Below are positions 6,042 to 59,729 of a stretch of 64,000 nucleotides of DNA, piece after piece. Position 1 is the first letter of the stretch. Each line of letters begins with the position of its first letter. Location of the stretch: NCBI GenBank assembly GCA_018402385.1, contig JAGYJA010000005.1, forward strand, positions 1 through 64,000. Direction: 5' to 3'. The notes below the pieces were generated by a model. It saw only the letters and a list, made by a program, of their open reading frames with translations. It did no database searches and was not told where the DNA came from. This DNA comes from Flavobacteriaceae bacterium (GTDB lineage Bacteria; Bacteroidota; Bacteroidia; Flavobacteriales; Flavobacteriaceae). The translations under genes and the position numbers were made by a program.

Positions 6042-6101
6042 AGTTTTAATCTATATTGTTTTTTAATAACTCAATAACTCAATAACTCACAAACTCAAAG
6101 A

Positions 6102-7073
6102 CTACTCCTCATAAACATGGAGCTTAGCTCCCATGCCATAATTGTTGTATCCTTTTTTAAGTAATTCTGAATTGGGGTTGTAATTGAAATCAAAGGGCTG
6201 CCATTTTCTATCATTAAAAAAGATGCGCCTTACCAAGGTTTTTTGCCCTGAAATTTGGTTTGTAAGCGGTAACAAAGGTCTGAAAGAAATTGCAATTCTT
6301 TCTATTCCTCTTGGGGTTTCATATTCATTATATGTTTTGGTTTGTACCAAGTTTCCATCAGCATCTGTAGGACCTAACACTTGAATAGAAACAAACAGCC
6401 CGTTTTCGGGTATAAAAATATTGTTTTTGAGCACATCCAATTCATAGACATCCTTTTTTTCTTGTTCGGTGACGTTGAAAATTACATTCCCATAAGAGAT
6501 TTCCATTCCGGGAAGGCCGTTGTTATTTTCATAAAACTTAACACGCATCAAGGTTGAAAATTTCCTTACTTGAATAACTTTTCCGGCAACTTCTTCTTTG
6601 ATGTTGATGGGCAATAAGAGGGTGGTAATTTGTGTGGGTTTGTTGTCAAATTTCGTAAATAAAACTGCCATTTCACTTTCTACGGTTTGAAGCCAGGAGT
6701 CGTGATAACTGGAATGAGTAATGGGTTCTATCTCACGTCTTTTATATTTACCATCTCTTTTGGTCGTGATTACAACTTCTTTTAATTGATCAATCTCCTG
6801 TTTCAAGGCATAGGCTTCTTTAATTTCTGATGTTAGAATAGTTAAGTTTTTGTAGCCTAAAGCCGAAACGAATAGCGTATCAATATCGGGATATCTTTTT
6901 TGTTGATAAAGGAATTCGCCATTAGCATTTGCATGGGTGCCCAGCCCATTACCAAAAGAAACGGTTACAAATGAAACCGGCCCCTTAGTTTCTGCATCAT
7001 AAAATTGCACCATCTGTCCGGAAGCAAAAAAGCTTATAAAAAGAAAGGTAATTGTAAATAGTATATTTTTCAT
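6102..7073 (-). CDS. Hypothetical secreted protein
   Basis: 323-aa ORF with N-terminal signal peptide; no recognised domain. Confidence 0.4.
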   Translation of the reverse strand: MKNILFTITFLFISFFASGQMVQFYDAETKGPVSFVTVSFGNGLGTHANANGEFLYQQKRYPDIDTLFVSALGYKNLTILTSEIKEAYALKQEIDQLKEVVITTKRDGKYKRREIEPITHSSYHDSWLQTVESEMAVLFTKFDNKPTQITTLLLPINIKEEVAGKVIQVRKFSTLMRVKFYENNNGLPGMEISYGNVIFNVTEQEKKDVYELDVLKNNIFIPENGLFVSIQVLGPTDADGNLVQTKTYNEYETPRGIERIAISFRPLLPLTNQISGQKTLVRRIFFNDRKWQPFDFNYNPNSELLKKGYNNYGMGAKLHVYEE

Positions 7074-35330: not shown

Positions 35331-35408
35331 TTGTTATTTGGTTAATGGTTAAGTGCTATTGGTTAACAGCTAAAATGAAAACTATTAACCAATAACTATT
35401 AACTAATT

Positions 35409-36920
<1,512 letters not shown>

Positions 36921-37049
36921 CTATTTATTGTTTAGCAAATTAATTATCTAAAAAACCTAAGAAAATAGGTTACGATTTTCACGGTGCAAAGATAGTTTTT
37001 TTAATTGAAATAAAATGAAAGGAAATTGAGATTTTTTGCTGAAAAATAT

Positions 37050-37243
37050 GCCACGAATGCACGAATGATTTTTGATGTTCTGTTTTGGAAAAAACACCAC
37101 AAAATTGATATTATCAAATTGGCACATTATTTTTTTTTAGACTTTTGTTTTTATTAAAAAGTCACAAACCAACCTTTGGAGCAGAGCAGTTCTTGTAAAA
37201 GCTGAAGCTAAAGCTCAAAAAATAGCATTAGTGCATTCGTGGC
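37050..37243. repeat. Perfect 13-bp inverted-repeat pair (GCCACGAATGCAC / GTGCATTCGTGGC) 168 bp apart; possible MITE-like insert
   Basis: Exact reverse complements at 37050-37062 and 37231-37243; adjacent 16-bp palindrome TCTCTATATATAGAGA at 37245-37260. Confidence 0.45.
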
Positions 37244-37312
37244 AATCTCTATATATAGAGAATGACAGATTTATGTAATGCATTGTATGGTTTGAAATTA
37301 AAATAAGGTTGA

Positions 37313-40605: not shown

Positions 40606-40666
40606 AGGTAATTCAAATTTTCATATTTCAAATTTTCTAATTTTTGAATCATCTCACCTCTACTAA

Positions 40667-41513: not shown

Positions 41514-42641
41514 TTATAAATTTAGTAAAAACAAATCACTCGAAATGCCATCACTCAAAAATTTACCTTTTTTAGTTACAAGCAAGATGTCGCCGTCCAG
41601 ATAGAGCAGGTGTTCTTCCAGGTGTTTTTGTGCCTGTTGTAAGAGATATTCCTTATATTTTGTTCCAAATTCTTCTTCCACACGTTTCACAGAAACACCC
41701 CACATTGTTCGTAACCCCGTCATTATATACTCATTATAACGATCGGTGGTAGAGAGGGTTTCGGTTTCTGAGGGGAGTTCATTTTTTTCGATATATTTGA
41801 TATATAAAGTGTTGTTGCGCACATTCCAGCTTCGGGTTTTACCGTCAAAGGAATGAGCTGAAGGACCAATACCTAAATAGGGTTTTCCTTGCCAATAAGC
41901 CGTGTTGTTTTTGCTGAAAAAACCTTCTTTTCCAAAGTTTGATAGTTCATAATGTACAAACCCCTTTCGCGTAAGCGTGTCTATCAAGGTGTGAAAATGT
42001 AGTTCTGCGATTTCTTCGTCAATGGGCTGAACGATCCCTTTTTTGATGAAGTTTTCTAATGCGGTTTTGGGTTCTACTGTAAGCGCATAACTGGATATAT
42101 GGGGAATGCCAAACGACAATGCTTTATGGATGTTTTGCTGCCACCGCTCAATGGACATCTCAGGGATACCGTAAATTAAATCCAGGGAAATATTATTAAA
42201 GTAGCTCATTGCCAGATTCAAACAATCTTCAGCTTCTTTAGCATTGTGTGCCCTGTTCATCAACTTTAAATCTTCTTCAAAAAAAGATTGGATACCGATG
42301 CTCAACCGGTTGATGGGGGAGTCTGCCAATTGTTTTATTTTTTCTTCAGTAAGATCATCCGGGTTGGCCTCGAGGGTTATTTCGACAGGCTTAGCAACCG
42401 TGTAATGCTCATAAATGGTTTTGAAAATTTGAGCGAGTTCTTCCCGTGTTAACAAACTGGGTGTGCCACCGCCAAAGTAAATGGTTTCTATGGTGCCTTT
42501 TATTTCGCTTTTTCGTAAAACGAGTTCGCGGCAAAGGGCTTCCACGAGCTCTGTTTTCTTTTTCAAGGAAGTCGAAAAATGAAAGTCGCAGTAATGACAG
42601 GCTTGCTTGCAGAAGGGAATATGTATGTAAATTCCGGACAT
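41514..42641 (-). CDS. hemW: Radical-SAM heme chaperone HemW (HemN-like)
   Basis: YIHIPFCKQACHYCDF CxxxCxxC radical-SAM motif; 375 aa. Confidence 0.85.
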   Translation of the reverse strand: MSGIYIHIPFCKQACHYCDFHFSTSLKKKTELVEALCRELVLRKSEIKGTIETIYFGGGTPSLLTREELAQIFKTIYEHYTVAKPVEITLEANPDDLTEEKIKQLADSPINRLSIGIQSFFEEDLKLMNRAHNAKEAEDCLNLAMSYFNNISLDLIYGIPEMSIERWQQNIHKALSFGIPHISSYALTVEPKTALENFIKKGIVQPIDEEIAELHFHTLIDTLTRKGFVHYELSNFGKEGFFSKNNTAYWQGKPYLGIGPSAHSFDGKTRSWNVRNNTLYIKYIEKNELPSETETLSTTDRYNEYIMTGLRTMWGVSVKRVEEEFGTKYKEYLLQQAQKHLEEHLLYLDGDILLVTKKGKFLSDGISSDLFLLNL

Positions 42642-42647
42642 GTTTTA

Positions 42648-43106
42648 GTGTTCAGTGTTCAGTGGCAGTGTTCAGTTTTCTATTTTAACTCCAAACTTTT
42701 CTGGGTTTAAAATCATAAAATTTAATAGTTTACGGACTTCTTCACTTTCTGAAGTGAGCTCGTCAAATGTTGTTTTGTCAATATACTCACATTCCAGAGC
42801 AAATTCAAGCCAAACCTGGGTTTCAGAGTTTTCAGCATCGCTATCTGTTAATTTGTACACATAACTTTTATTATAGCTTCACTTTCTATATGCTTCTGCC
42901 AAGTTAGCACAAACACTGCGTGAGCTTCTTCTAATCTGATCGGTTAGTGAATATTTTTCTTCTTTTGGAAAGGACTTAGAAAGATGAAATATTTTCATAG
43001 ATAATTGAAATCCTTTTTTGTAAGCTATCAAATCTTGAAATCTCATAACCTAATTTTTTTTTAACTTATACTTATTTACTGAACACTTCCACTGCCCACT
43101 GATCAC
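42648..43106. mobile_element. IVS-like element: 29-bp imperfect inverted repeats (25/29 match) flanking a four-helix-bundle pseudogene, inserted between hemW start and ruvC stop
   Basis: Left arm 42648-42676 GTGTTCAGTGTTCAGTGGCAGTGTTCAGT. Right arm 43078-43106, reverse complement GTGATCAGTGGGCAGTGGAAGTGTTCAGT. Confidence 0.5.
42672..42998 (-). pseudogene. Four-helix-bundle (23S rRNA intervening-sequence protein family) gene with in-frame TGA
   Basis: N-terminal MKIFHLSKSFPKEEKYSLTDQIRRSSRSVCANLAEAYRK, then TGA, then SYNKSYVYKLTDSDAENSETQVWLEFALECEY...NPEKF in the same frame. Confidence 0.6.
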
Positions 43107-43660
43107 TTTTTCCCAACCCGTCCCTCATTCTGTTTCACAAACGCCCCCCAACCCGTATAACTTTTTTCACCCGTGGTTTTACCCATATTGTAAAAGTGGC
43201 ACACGGCTGCTGCGAGTCCGTCTGTGGAGTCGAGGTTTTTGGGGAGTTCTTTTAGTTCCAAAAGGCTTTGAAGCATTTTGGCGACTTGCTCTTTGCTGGC
43301 GTTTCCGTTGCCGGTGATGGCCATTTTGATTTTTTTTGGGGAATATTCCGTGATGGGGATTTGTCTTGAAAGTCCGGCTGCCATAGCAACGCCTTGAGCC
43401 CTTCCAAGCTTTAACATTGACTGTACATTTTTTCCGAAAAATGGGGCTTCAATGGCGATTTCATCGGGATGGTGTGTGTCAATGAGCTCGATGGTGCGTT
43501 CAAAAATGAGTTTTAACTTGACATAATGGTCGTCATATTTTTTGAGTTGGAGTTCGTTGAGCTGCATAAATTGCATCTTTTTTTTCACCACTTTTACGAG
43601 TCCGAAGCCCATAATGGTGGTTCCGGGGTCGATGCCTAATATAATTTTTTCAGTGTTCAA
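43103..43660 (-). CDS. ruvC: Crossover junction endodeoxyribonuclease RuvC
   Basis: ILGIDPGTTIMGFGLV and conserved RuvC acidic residues. Confidence 0.9.
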   Translation of the reverse strand: MNTEKIILGIDPGTTIMGFGLVKVVKKKMQFMQLNELQLKKYDDHYVKLKLIFERTIELIDTHHPDEIAIEAPFFGKNVQSMLKLGRAQGVAMAAGLSRQIPITEYSPKKIKMAITGNGNASKEQVAKMLQSLLELKELPKNLDSTDGLAAAVCHFYNMGKTTGEKSYTGWGAFVKQNEGRVGKK

Positions 43661-49816: not shown

Positions 49817-49884
49817 AAAGTGGATGTATTCCTAAGTGTACACCTAAAACCATCCAAAACTTACTATTTAGCAATCTGCCTTAA

Positions 49885-49953
49885 AACAAAAAAAGCTCTA
49901 CGCACAAAGGCGAAAAGCTTCTCATCGGCTCTATCCCCAAGTTTACTTGGGGA
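49885..49953 (-). repeat. Degenerate copy A of the tRNA-Asp 3'-flank/terminator module
   Basis: AAACAAAAAAAGCTCTACGCACAAAGGCGAAAAGCTTCTCATCGGCTCTA..CCCCAAGTTTACTTGGGGA, ~90% identical over ~69 nt to copies B and C. Confidence 0.7.
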
Positions 49954-50012
49954 CCTTTCCGCCTTCCTTCGAACAATTGAACCTTTTCATTAACGTTCAC
50001 AAGATTACTTGG

Positions 50013-50032: not shown

Positions 50033-50296
50033 TTATTTTTTAAGAATGTTTTTAGGCGACTTAATAAGTTGTTGGATTTGAGAATGGCTATATTTTTTTA
50101 AAACTTTTTCTCTTATTAATGCTAGTTTTTTTGTTTCAAGGCATTCAATATATATTAATTCCCAAGGCCCTTTGTTCTTGGTATAGTTGCTCTCGTTTTT
50201 ATTGTGGGAGATTATCCTTTTATATGGGTCTGTTGAATACCCCCTATAATATTTAGAAGAATTTTGACTAAAAATTATGTAAACGTAGTGTTCCAT
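50033..50296 (-). CDS. Small GIY-YIG nuclease-family protein
   Basis: YVYIIFSQNSSKYYRGYS...R...E (GIY-x10-YRG); 87 aa. Confidence 0.7.
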   Translation of the reverse strand: MEHYVYIIFSQNSSKYYRGYSTDPYKRIISHNKNESNYTKNKGPWELIYIECLETKKLALIREKVLKKYSHSQIQQLIKSPKNILKK

Positions 50297-50309
50297 TCGG
50301 AACTAATTT

Positions 50310-50441
50310 AAACAAAAAAAGCTCTACGCACAAAGGCGAAAAGCTTCTCATCGGCTCTACTACAAGCCTTTCCCCAAGTTTACTTGGGGACAACACAACA
50401 TCTTGACGGCTACTGAGCGTAGTCGAAGTATGCGGTCTGGA
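50310..50441 (-). repeat. Copy B of the tRNA-Asp 3'-flank/terminator module plus 9-nt tRNA 3' stub (island distal junction)
   Basis: 131/132 nt identical to copy C except CAAAGG versus AATAAT. Ends in CGGTCTGGA, the reverse complement of tRNA 3' end TCCAGACCG. Confidence 0.8.
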
Positions 50442-59532: not shown

Positions 59533-59664
59533 AAACAAAAAAAGCTCTACGCAATAATGCGAAAAGCTTCTCATCGGCTCTACTACAAGCCTTTCCCCAA
59601 GTTTACTTGGGGACAACACAACATCTTGACGGCTACTGAGCGTAGTCGAAGTATGCGGTCTGGA
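59533..59664 (-). repeat. Copy C of the 3'-flank/terminator module (native downstream region of the intact tRNA-Asp)
   Basis: CCCCAAGT-TT-ACTTGGGG perfect hairpin; AGCTTTTCGC..GCGTAGAGCT stem followed by T7 on the tRNA strand. Confidence 0.8.
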
Positions 59665-59729
59665 CGGGACTCGAACCCGCGACCCCCTGCGTGACAGGCA
59701 GGTATTCTAACCAACTGAACTACCAGACC
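59656..59729 (-). tRNA. tRNA-Asp (anticodon GTC)
   Basis: GGTCTGGTAGTTCAGTTGGTTAGAATACCTGCCTGTCACGCAGGGGGTCGCGGGTTCGAGTCCCGTCCAGACCG; cloverleaf with 7-bp acceptor stem and GTC anticodon; CCA not encoded. Confidence 0.9.

Follow-up and report, generated by a model that had tools for sequence, protein, structure and literature searches.

A four-helix-bundle gene within inverted heptamer arrays at the ruvC-hemW junction: a probable operon-embedded counterpart of 23S rRNA intervening sequences

Between ruvC and hemW on the minus strand of a 64,000-nucleotide stretch from a Flavobacteriaceae bacterium (positions 1 to 64,000 of contig JAGYJA010000005.1, assembly GCA_018402385.1; hereafter the window) lies a 461-bp element in which a four-helix-bundle (FHB) gene of the S23p/Avd-like family PF05635 is enclosed by inverted arrays of a seven-nucleotide unit. 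This element is probably one copy of a widespread, operon-embedded counterpart of the intervening sequence (IVS) that carries an open reading frame (ORF) in 23S rRNA, and an IVS-type element outside rRNA is its best-supported description. Three lines of evidence bear on this interpretation: the anatomy of the element and the state of its gene, the recurrence of the same anatomy at other gene junctions and in other phyla, and the joint evolution of the two arms.

Anatomy of the element and its interrupted gene

The two arms are each 30 nt long, are complementary at 26 of 30 positions (87%) and lie 401 nt apart (Table 1), such that the whole element spans 42647-43107. Among inverted repeats whose arms are no more than 800 nt apart, this pair ranks first in the window. 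A sequence-only reading of the same DNA had reported inverted repeats matching at 25 of 29 positions on either side of the gene, and these are confirmed with slightly refined ends. The same reading had described a 9-nt repeat unit, GTGTTCAGT. The actual unit is 7 nt long, as Tandem Repeats Finder reports a period of 7 at 42647-42680, with 5.0 copies of the consensus AGTGTTC. Five AGT triplets spaced by 6-7 nt make up the 5′ arm, and a 17-mer of the arms, AGTGTTCAGTGTTCAGT, occurs three times in the window when up to three mismatches are allowed (0.14 occurrences expected), each time within the arms.

The arms reach into, or close to, the coding sequences on both sides. Specifically, the TGA stop codon of ruvC (43103-43105) falls within the opening heptad of the 5′ arm, the normal stop codon of the FHB gene (42672-42674) is located inside the 3′ arm, and only five nucleotides (AAAAC) separate the 3′ arm from the hemW ATG. 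The earlier placement of one arm at the hemW start codon and of the other over the ruvC stop codon therefore holds. The FHB gene, ruvC and hemW are all encoded on the same strand, and thus the ORF of the element is sense to its host genes. When the RNA from 42640 to 43115 on the minus strand is folded computationally, as the sequence-only reading had proposed, the predicted free energy is -125.6 kcal/mol, compared to -89.0 +/- 4.7 for shuffled sequences (z = -7.8), and the arms form the closing stem.

Table 1. Positions in the window of the element, its parts and its host genes.
Feature	Position	Strand	Basis
ruvC, upstream host gene	43103..43660	-	TIGR00228, 127.9 bits vs cutoff 100.65; ORF list
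5′ arm (sense): AGTGATC AGTGGGC AGTGGA AGTGTTC AGT	43078..43107	-	Inverted repeat
A-rich spacer, 31 nt, from 5′ arm to FHB start codon	43047..43077	-	Sequence
FHB gene, 124 codons, PF05635/TIGR02436	42672..43046	-	Translation; Pfam and NCBIfam matches
Premature TGA at codon 56	42879..42881	-	Translation; alignment with relatives
3′ arm (sense): ACTGAAC ACTGCC ACTGAAC ACTGAAC ACT	42647..42676	-	Inverted repeat; Tandem Repeats Finder
hemW, downstream host gene, start codon 42639-42641	41514..42641	-	TIGR00539, 301 bits vs cutoff 205.4

With its internal stop codon masked, the FHB ORF matches PF05635 over profile positions 1-105 of 106 (E=3.3e-32, 111.3 bits against a cutoff of 33.8) and TIGR02436 with 101.7 bits against a cutoff of 24. 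The profile matches and the translation agree with the earlier description of a four-helix-bundle ORF with an in-frame TGA. This TGA replaces an arginine codon that is invariant (Arg56) across 27 aligned homologues. Codon 56 is CGA in the related locus L081 and AGA in loci L001 and L082, and the lesion is most simply explained by a change from CGA to TGA. Because the stop codon replaces an invariant residue, and because the orthologues in these three loci and in proteins P0001-P0007 are intact, the interrupted window gene appears to be a pseudogene member of the PF05635 family.

The closest match among database proteins, P0001, is uninterrupted and shares 97% identity with the window copy. The two differ solely at *56R, N59Q, V63A, Y64F and R105G, all of which are at or after the stop. 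Similarly, relative to its nearest relatives the window copy carries four lineage-specific substitutions (Q/H59N, A63V, F64Y and G105R), none of which lies upstream of the stop. Among intact orthologues dN/dS is 0.03-0.1. For the window copy versus L081, where counts are small, the ratio is 0.03 before the stop and 0.21 after it. The low ratios and the few differences from P0001 indicate that the FHB protein is normally functional and under strong purifying selection and that its inactivation is recent. Thus, the window gene appears to be a young pseudogene, struck by a recent nonsense mutation while its arms stayed intact, and decay 3′ of the stop seems barely to have begun. The sequence-only reading had regarded the region after the TGA as diverged. 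The family profile nonetheless aligns along the whole of the C-terminal half, and what survives of that claim is that all four lineage-specific substitutions are found there.

Signals for independent expression were sought within the element. No intrinsic terminator was found, the A-rich spacer holds no Bacteroidetes-type promoter motif, and matches to a sigma-70-type promoter, a model inapplicable to Bacteroidota, are at background level. The spacer is near-identical in L081. At gathering thresholds, the sole Rfam match in the window is a tRNA (59656-59729), and at E up to 5 nothing credible is returned for 42300-43400. No other FHB copies or AGT-type arms are present within the window. As for the host genes, the window RuvC is 94% identical to that of L001, and exact-sequence look-up of the window HemW and of P0026 returned no record. 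Further neighbors of the element include a cyclase and glycosyltransferases.

Recurrence of the cassette at operon junctions

Among 80 Flavobacteriaceae loci retrieved through HemW, ruvC and hemW are neighbors in nearly all, a point on which the sequence-only reading had asked for a check. The gap between the two genes is mostly -4 to ~100 nt, and several pairs overlap (ATGA or TAATG). In nine of these loci an FHB gene is located between ruvC and hemW, and inverted heptad arms are present in 9 of 9. Loci L081, L082 and L001 share the synteny of the window and carry an intact FHB gene plus arms. Intact FHB genes in relatives without inverted repeats, which the sequence-only reading had named as the observation that would count against it, were not seen: all relatives with an intact gene at this junction have inverted arms.

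Many FHB-free junctions carry the arms alone as a compact hairpin. For example, L041 reads TAG TGTCCAGTGCTCAGTGTTCAGT tattagtt CTGAACACTGAACACTGAGCACTGAACACT aaaat ATG, and bare hairpins are likewise found in L007, L012, L016, L028, L042, L074, L078 and L079. Other FHB-free junctions carry only a heptad array that abuts the hemW ATG, and long FHB-free gaps between ruvC and hemW contain no residual FHB coding sequence. In Allomuricauda/Flagellimonas, Zunongwangia, Aequorivita and one Maribacter strain, this junction holds a second FHB subfamily that shares ~30% identity with the first and is bounded by arms of CAATnnn units. Within this last genus, Maribacter stanieri (L054) has subfamily 1 and Maribacter sp. 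1_MG-2023 (L176) has subfamily 2, both between ruvC and hemW. Because its content may be either of two unrelated FHB subfamilies, a bare hairpin or another small gene, the junction behaves, as judged from these sequences, as a recurrent slot with variable content. The sequence-only reading had the element land in an intergenic site. Given its presence between ruvC and hemW across many genera of Flavobacteriaceae and the low dN/dS noted above, the FHB cassette is better described as an old, recurrent resident.

Two further observations concern the content of such slots. In Winogradskyella, a 121-aa ORF replaces the FHB gene between ruvC and hemW (L036:3537-4001 and L049:3589-4001). Its product has no Pfam match and an N-terminus that by eye resembles a signal peptide, and in L036 it still has an AGT chain on its 5′ side and an ACT chain on its 3′ side. 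A second slot is located 3′ of the cyclase gene that follows hemW. This site holds an FHB cassette in L025:2846-3224 and in L137 (a second FHB gene), and a bare heptad hairpin or array in L007:6477-6553, L021:6447-6477 and L029:6443-6466.

The survey was extended by adding 80 metagenomic FHB loci, and measurements were made on 79 non-redundant Flavobacteriaceae loci. A chain was defined as at least three triplets at 6-8-nt spacing, with the opposite triplet serving as control. The 5′ flank bears an AGT chain in 67/79 loci (control ACT, 2/79), and the 3′ flank an ACT chain in 70/79 (control AGT, 2/79). Specifically, (C)AGTnnn heptads follow the upstream stop codon, and nnnACT(G) heptads precede the downstream start codon. 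Units are predominantly spaced by 7 nt (n=232), less often by 6 nt (n=42) or 8 nt (n=8), and five units is the mode for both arms. The median distances are 33 nt from the end of the 5′ arm to the ATG and 11.5 nt from the stop codon to the 3′ arm, and the median element length is 476 nt. In all, ~90 FHB genes of Flavobacteriaceae share this arrangement. Chains of at least four units number 203 in 1.09 Mb of loci, compared to 4 after shuffling, and in this FHB-biased sample 156 of the 203 flank FHB genes while the remainder are mostly bare hairpins.

The Bacteroidetes -7 motif TAnnTTTG is found within 100 nt upstream in only 3/79 loci, and both neighbors are co-directional with the FHB gene in 64 of the 66 loci where both were called. 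Thus, the cassette lacks a dedicated promoter. Its insertion sites comprise at least 10 different junctions. The one between genes for a 3-hydroxyacyl-CoA dehydrogenase and DUF1015 is confirmed by Pfam, others were named by eye without a profile check (kdsC-like/UbiA-like, nqrD/nqrE-like and ffh/folD), and a published F. columnare gene table gives the order gmk/FHB/nadD. FHB proteins share a mean identity of 74% within an insertion site and 72% between sites, and do not cluster by site. Since the FHB tree ignores insertion site and the second subfamily shares the same junction, a single ancient insertion followed by simple vertical inheritance is disfavored, as far as a short tree of 124 residues without support values can speak to it.

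The same arrangement is encountered beyond the Bacteroidota. In Xanthomonas and Dyella, an FHB gene of the XCC0516 family, a member of which has been crystallised, resides in sense orientation between accB and accC. The XCC0516 arms (GGGAATC GGGAGTG GAGAATC GGGAATC / CCCATTC CCCATTC CCGACTC CCTATTC) are 83% complementary over 30 nt and are separated by 383 nt, and the 3′ arm abuts the accC ATG. The products of eight FHB genes from cyanobacterial plasmids are 50-57% identical to the window protein, and in 6/8 of these the gene is enclosed by inverted GCAGGG(G)A arrays that abut start/stop codons. Read along the coding strand, the array upstream of the gene is purine-rich or G-rich in every motif family, and its C-rich counterpart lies downstream. 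By these comparisons, the anatomy of the cassette recurs in three phyla.

Variations on the arrangement are seen among the plasmid loci. In the Oscillatoria nigro-viridis plasmid pOSC7112.02 (L179:1250-2030), the FHB gene is positioned between long 8-nt G-rich direct arrays (GAGAGTGG/GAGGGGGA). In a Nostoc flagelliforme plasmid, outer 24-nt inverted repeats that are 96% complementary (L177:1406-1429 and 1913-1936) enclose the heptad arms, and therefore the cassette is nested in another hairpin.

Arm pairing, known systems and competing explanations

Minimum-free-energy folds contain at least 15 arm-to-arm base pairs in 56 of 60 elements, with a median of 23.5. The complementarity between a locus's own arms is 36.1, compared to 26.7 +/- 0.84 for permuted partners, and none of 20000 permutations scored higher; the arms have co-evolved. 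When matches are resolved by heptad position, the A, G and T of the core agree at 97-98% within a locus and between loci alike. The next two positions (3-4) match at 56-60% within a locus and 46% between loci, and the last two at 82-87% and 68-73%, respectively. Overall, variable positions match at 66% in own arms versus 53% in arms from other loci (p = 9e-9). Because the core matches everywhere whereas variable positions match better within a locus, the arms are subject to two superimposed constraints: strong conservation of the motif and a genuine, though weaker, pressure to remain complementary, which could act on RNA or DNA alike. The long stem envisaged by the sequence-only reading is thus only part of the picture. 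The arms do close the predicted fold, but they are also motif arrays with a conserved AGT/ACT core.

These properties suggest how an operon-embedded counterpart of rRNA IVSs could work. The cassette would be transcribed by read-through from ruvC, and in the resulting ruvC-FHB-hemW RNA the arms are predicted to pair as an imperfect ~30-bp stem, which the co-evolution of the arms supports. Such a stem would loop the cassette out and bring the ruvC stop codon beside the hemW start codon. By analogy with rRNA IVSs, the stem could be a substrate for RNase III, whose cleavage would free the FHB message and split the ruvC and hemW messages from each other. More speculatively, looping-out could limit the cost of insertion at a junction that is tightly coupled in genomes where it is empty. 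The window arms may still shape the expression of ruvC and hemW.

The likeness to 23S rRNA IVSs is best judged against Coxiella burnetii and Leptospira (PMC4990558), whose IVSs likewise carry a sense PF05635 ORF. The Coxiella IVS is 428-444 nt long, whereas the window element measures 461 nt, and it is closed by a 28-bp terminal stem that surrounds a decaying sense S23p ORF (PMC4990558). Both elements have terminal inverted repeats that form a stem of ~28-30 bp with few mismatches, and both have an ORF prone to decay, which is degenerating in Coxiella and bears a nonsense codon in the window. Moreover, tandem heptamers are common to the 5′ part of each. The Coxiella 5′ region holds 2-3 tandem GACAGAT heptamers, and RNase III cuts at the first of these (PMC4990558). 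The differences are also clear. The host transcript of the window element is the protein-coding ruvC-hemW operon rather than an rRNA, its heptads make up both arms and have an invariant AGT/ACT core, the FHB protein is under strong purifying selection in the relatives of the window, and excision by RNase III is demonstrated for IVSs but would be only a presumption for the window element. IVSs are defined in part by their location in rRNA genes, at helix 9, 25 or 45 of 23S rRNA. Because the window element is situated outside any rRNA gene, it does not count as an IVS by this definition. The suggestion in the sequence-only reading of an IVS-type element therefore holds with regard to the ORF, its sense orientation, the size and the heptamer-array stem, but not location.

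A second body of work concerns intergenic heptamer repeats. X. campestris has 186 GGGAATC arrays, with four units preferred and 70 convergent pairs (Rehm et al. 2015, PMC4692102). These are mostly located between aligned ORFs, with the G-rich strand no more than 50 bp after a stop codon, and are mostly transcribed; they were read as G-quadruplex formers and their function was left open (PMC4692102). The text of that report contains zero occurrences of 'four helix' or 'S23'. The Xanthomonas and Nostoc repeats of this class (GGGAATC / GGGGA(C/T)T) resemble the window arms in their 7-nt unit, in a preference for ~4-5 units, and in their placement in intergenic regions that separate aligned ORFs, where the purine- or G-rich strand closely follows a stop codon and the C-rich strand closely precedes a start codon. 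Within the class, convergent pairs are frequent and the number of units varies quickly between relatives, and the XCC0516 FHB gene sits inside one GGGAATC-type pair. Unlike these repeats, the AGTGTTC unit of the window lacks G-tracts and cannot form a G-quadruplex. TAACTGA arrays, which end a few nucleotides before start codons in Beggiatoaceae, Cyanobacteria and five Bacteroidetes (MacGregor 2015, PMC4679880), resemble the 3′ arm of the window, (GAACACT)n, as forward heptamers ending just before a start codon, and in the register ACTGATA they share the core ACTGA with the window unit. However, these are stand-alone direct repeats with a different unit, with one inverted pair in the BOGUAY genome and no link to FHB genes. 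The window arms thus have the hallmarks of heptameric intergenic repeats (tandem 7-nt units, aligned ORFs and fixed strand polarity), but their unit, AGTGTTC/GAACACT, is neither GGGAATC / GGGGAYT nor TAACTGA.

Other candidate identities were rejected. PF05635 genes have been reported near diversity-generating retroelements (DGRs; PMC10053308), and the window FHB sequence has Avd-superfamily matches (PF22296, bAvd-like, E=2.6e-8; NF033474, 27.8 bits against a cutoff of 80). It is not assigned as a DGR Avd protein, as its score is below the equivalog cutoff and no reverse transcriptase is nearby, although no search for template/variable repeats was made. PF05635 genes also occur inside cas operons (PMC3936711). 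A link to anti-phage defense is not indicated here by any PADLOC match or by any homologue in phage records at E up to 1e-6. The element also does not qualify as a miniature inverted-repeat transposable element or other inverted-repeat transposon: no consistent direct repeat is seen outside the arms, the window has one copy, and paralogues at other sites are ~72% identical at the protein level.

Several observations weigh against an RNA element that is shaped by pairing alone. The AGT/ACT core is conserved at 97-98% while heptad positions 3-4 pair at only 56-60%, leaving periodic internal mismatches in the stem, and hence the sequence is constrained beyond the needs of a stem. The heptad motif also changes with FHB subfamily (AGT, CAAT, GGGAAT, GCAGGG), which points to sequence-specific recognition. 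Among arm mismatches, sense-strand G.U pairs are not over-represented (63 sense-type, 87 antisense-type and 181 other). Finally, the cyanobacterial plasmids provide exceptions in L179, with direct arrays on both sides, and L182, with no arrays, and their FHB genes are not always co-directional with their neighbors.

Some of these same facts would be accommodated if the cassette operated at the level of DNA, with the heptad arrays serving as terminal protein-binding sites for an FHB oligomer or a host factor. The cassette would then move or be exchanged among hairpin slots at operon junctions and rRNA helices, and bare hairpins would be non-autonomous or decayed derivatives. We consider this explanation possible but rather unlikely. 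Core conservation far past the needs of pairing, the lack of an RNA-type wobble signal and the difference in motif between subfamilies all favor recognition by a protein, as does the agreement between the modal five units per arm and the five chains in each of the solved non-DGR relatives 2gsc and 2rld. HutP binds three UAG triplets with four spacer nucleotides between them, and thus offers a precedent, here taken only as a lead, for 7-nt spacing in protein-RNA recognition. Movement of DNA would fit the occurrence of two subfamilies only ~30% identical at the same junction, even within Maribacter, the failure of FHB proteins to cluster by site, the presence of bare arms at junctions that carry the gene in other genomes, and the enclosure of a different ORF by the L036 arms. 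It would also fit the proposal by Ralph & McClelland, as cited in PMC4990558, that the IVS ORF is a mobility component. Against this, the arm boundaries show no target-site duplication, near-identical copies at different sites were not found (paralogues are 70-78% identical), and the FHB protein has neither a known catalytic motif nor a match in PADLOC. Furthermore, a mechanism confined to DNA has no need for the strict sense orientation seen in 64/66 loci, and the tree invoked in its favor is the short, unsupported one noted above.

It is also conceivable, but improbable in our judgment, that the hairpins are host regulatory repeats that pre-date the FHB gene, which would merely be a passenger in the loop. 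The arrays, just 3′ of stop codons and just 5′ of start codons, might then be a general feature of these genomes and serve translation initiation or coupling, RNA stability, or a non-B structure of DNA or RNA. Arrays of the same polarity are found genome-wide in other taxa (PMC4692102, PMC4679880), many FHB-free ruvC-hemW junctions have a bare hairpin or a hemW-abutting array, and the window itself has other 7-8-nt arrays beside start and stop codons. In addition, bare arrays outnumber FHB genes outside ruvC-hemW in the hemW-centered loci. Yet nearly every FHB gene examined, in three phyla, resides inside an array pair, which chance insertion does not explain, and the motif tracks FHB subfamily (AGT versus CAAT) at the same junction in the same family. 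Nor does the G-quadruplex function proposed for GGGAATC generalize, because AGTGTTC cannot form this structure. A bolder proposal is that FHB proteins are the cognate binders of heptamer arrays, with FHB cassettes as the 'autonomous' form and the far commoner bare hairpins and arrays as non-autonomous derivatives or targets in trans. We hold this to be doubtful. The candidate targets would be AGTGTTC in Flavobacteriaceae, GGGAATC in Xanthomonas, GGGGAYT/GCAGGGA in Nostoc and possibly TAACTGA in Beggiatoaceae. If true, this proposal would explain the ORF-bearing rRNA IVSs, the excess of heptameric repeats in bacteria and the function of S23p.

Other repeats in the window and significance of the class

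Several additional repeats are present in the window. A compact hairpin of the 7-nt units GTTAATA/GTTATTG (minus strand; 35346-35407), with 22-nt arms that are 82% complementary and a 12-nt loop, starts 1 nt after the stop codon of the gene at 35409..36914(-) and resembles a bare heptad hairpin with another motif. The product of this gene is presumably ATP synthase beta subunit-like, as judged by eye without a profile check. In the intergenic region 36915-37312, 25-nt inverted arms that are 88% complementary (37049-37073 and 37220-37244) and contain CACGAATG twice flank 146 nt without any ORF longer than 56 aa. This pair might mark an emptied cassette or belong to a small structured RNA. At 40612-40644, a 7-8-nt array directly precedes a start codon, as do the published TAACTGA arrays, and at 6065-6098, 4.2 copies of AATAACTC with period 8 lie beside the stop codon of the gene at 6102..7073(-). 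Finally, a direct repeat of ~85 nt (49868-49955 and 50303-50392), of which each copy ends in the perfect palindrome TCCCCAAGTTTACTTGGGGA, brackets an 87-aa GIY-YIG nuclease ORF at 50033..50296(-) (PF01541, E=4e-16). This arrangement suggests a small GIY-YIG element whose flank has been duplicated.

Considered by itself, the ruvC-hemW element of the window is an unremarkable pseudogene member of a large class. The class as a whole, defined by FHB genes in inverted heptamer arrays within operons and found in three phyla, appears to be previously undescribed. In the full-text literature searched, whose coverage is incomplete, we found no paper linking FHB genes to heptamer arms and no description of operon-embedded IVS-like cassettes.

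The class ties rRNA IVSs to the unexplained heptamer repeats of bacteria, and in doing so joins three puzzles: the nature of ORF-bearing rRNA IVSs and the role of S23p, the over-representation of heptamers between bacterial genes, and the scattering of PF05635 genes among unrelated operons, for example accBC, cas loci and ruvC-hemW. In two chromosomal lineages, the FHB gene is found in sense orientation inside housekeeping operons. This pattern calls for caution when gene function is assigned through guilt by association, since an FHB gene in an operon may be an inserted cassette rather than a functional partner of its neighbors.

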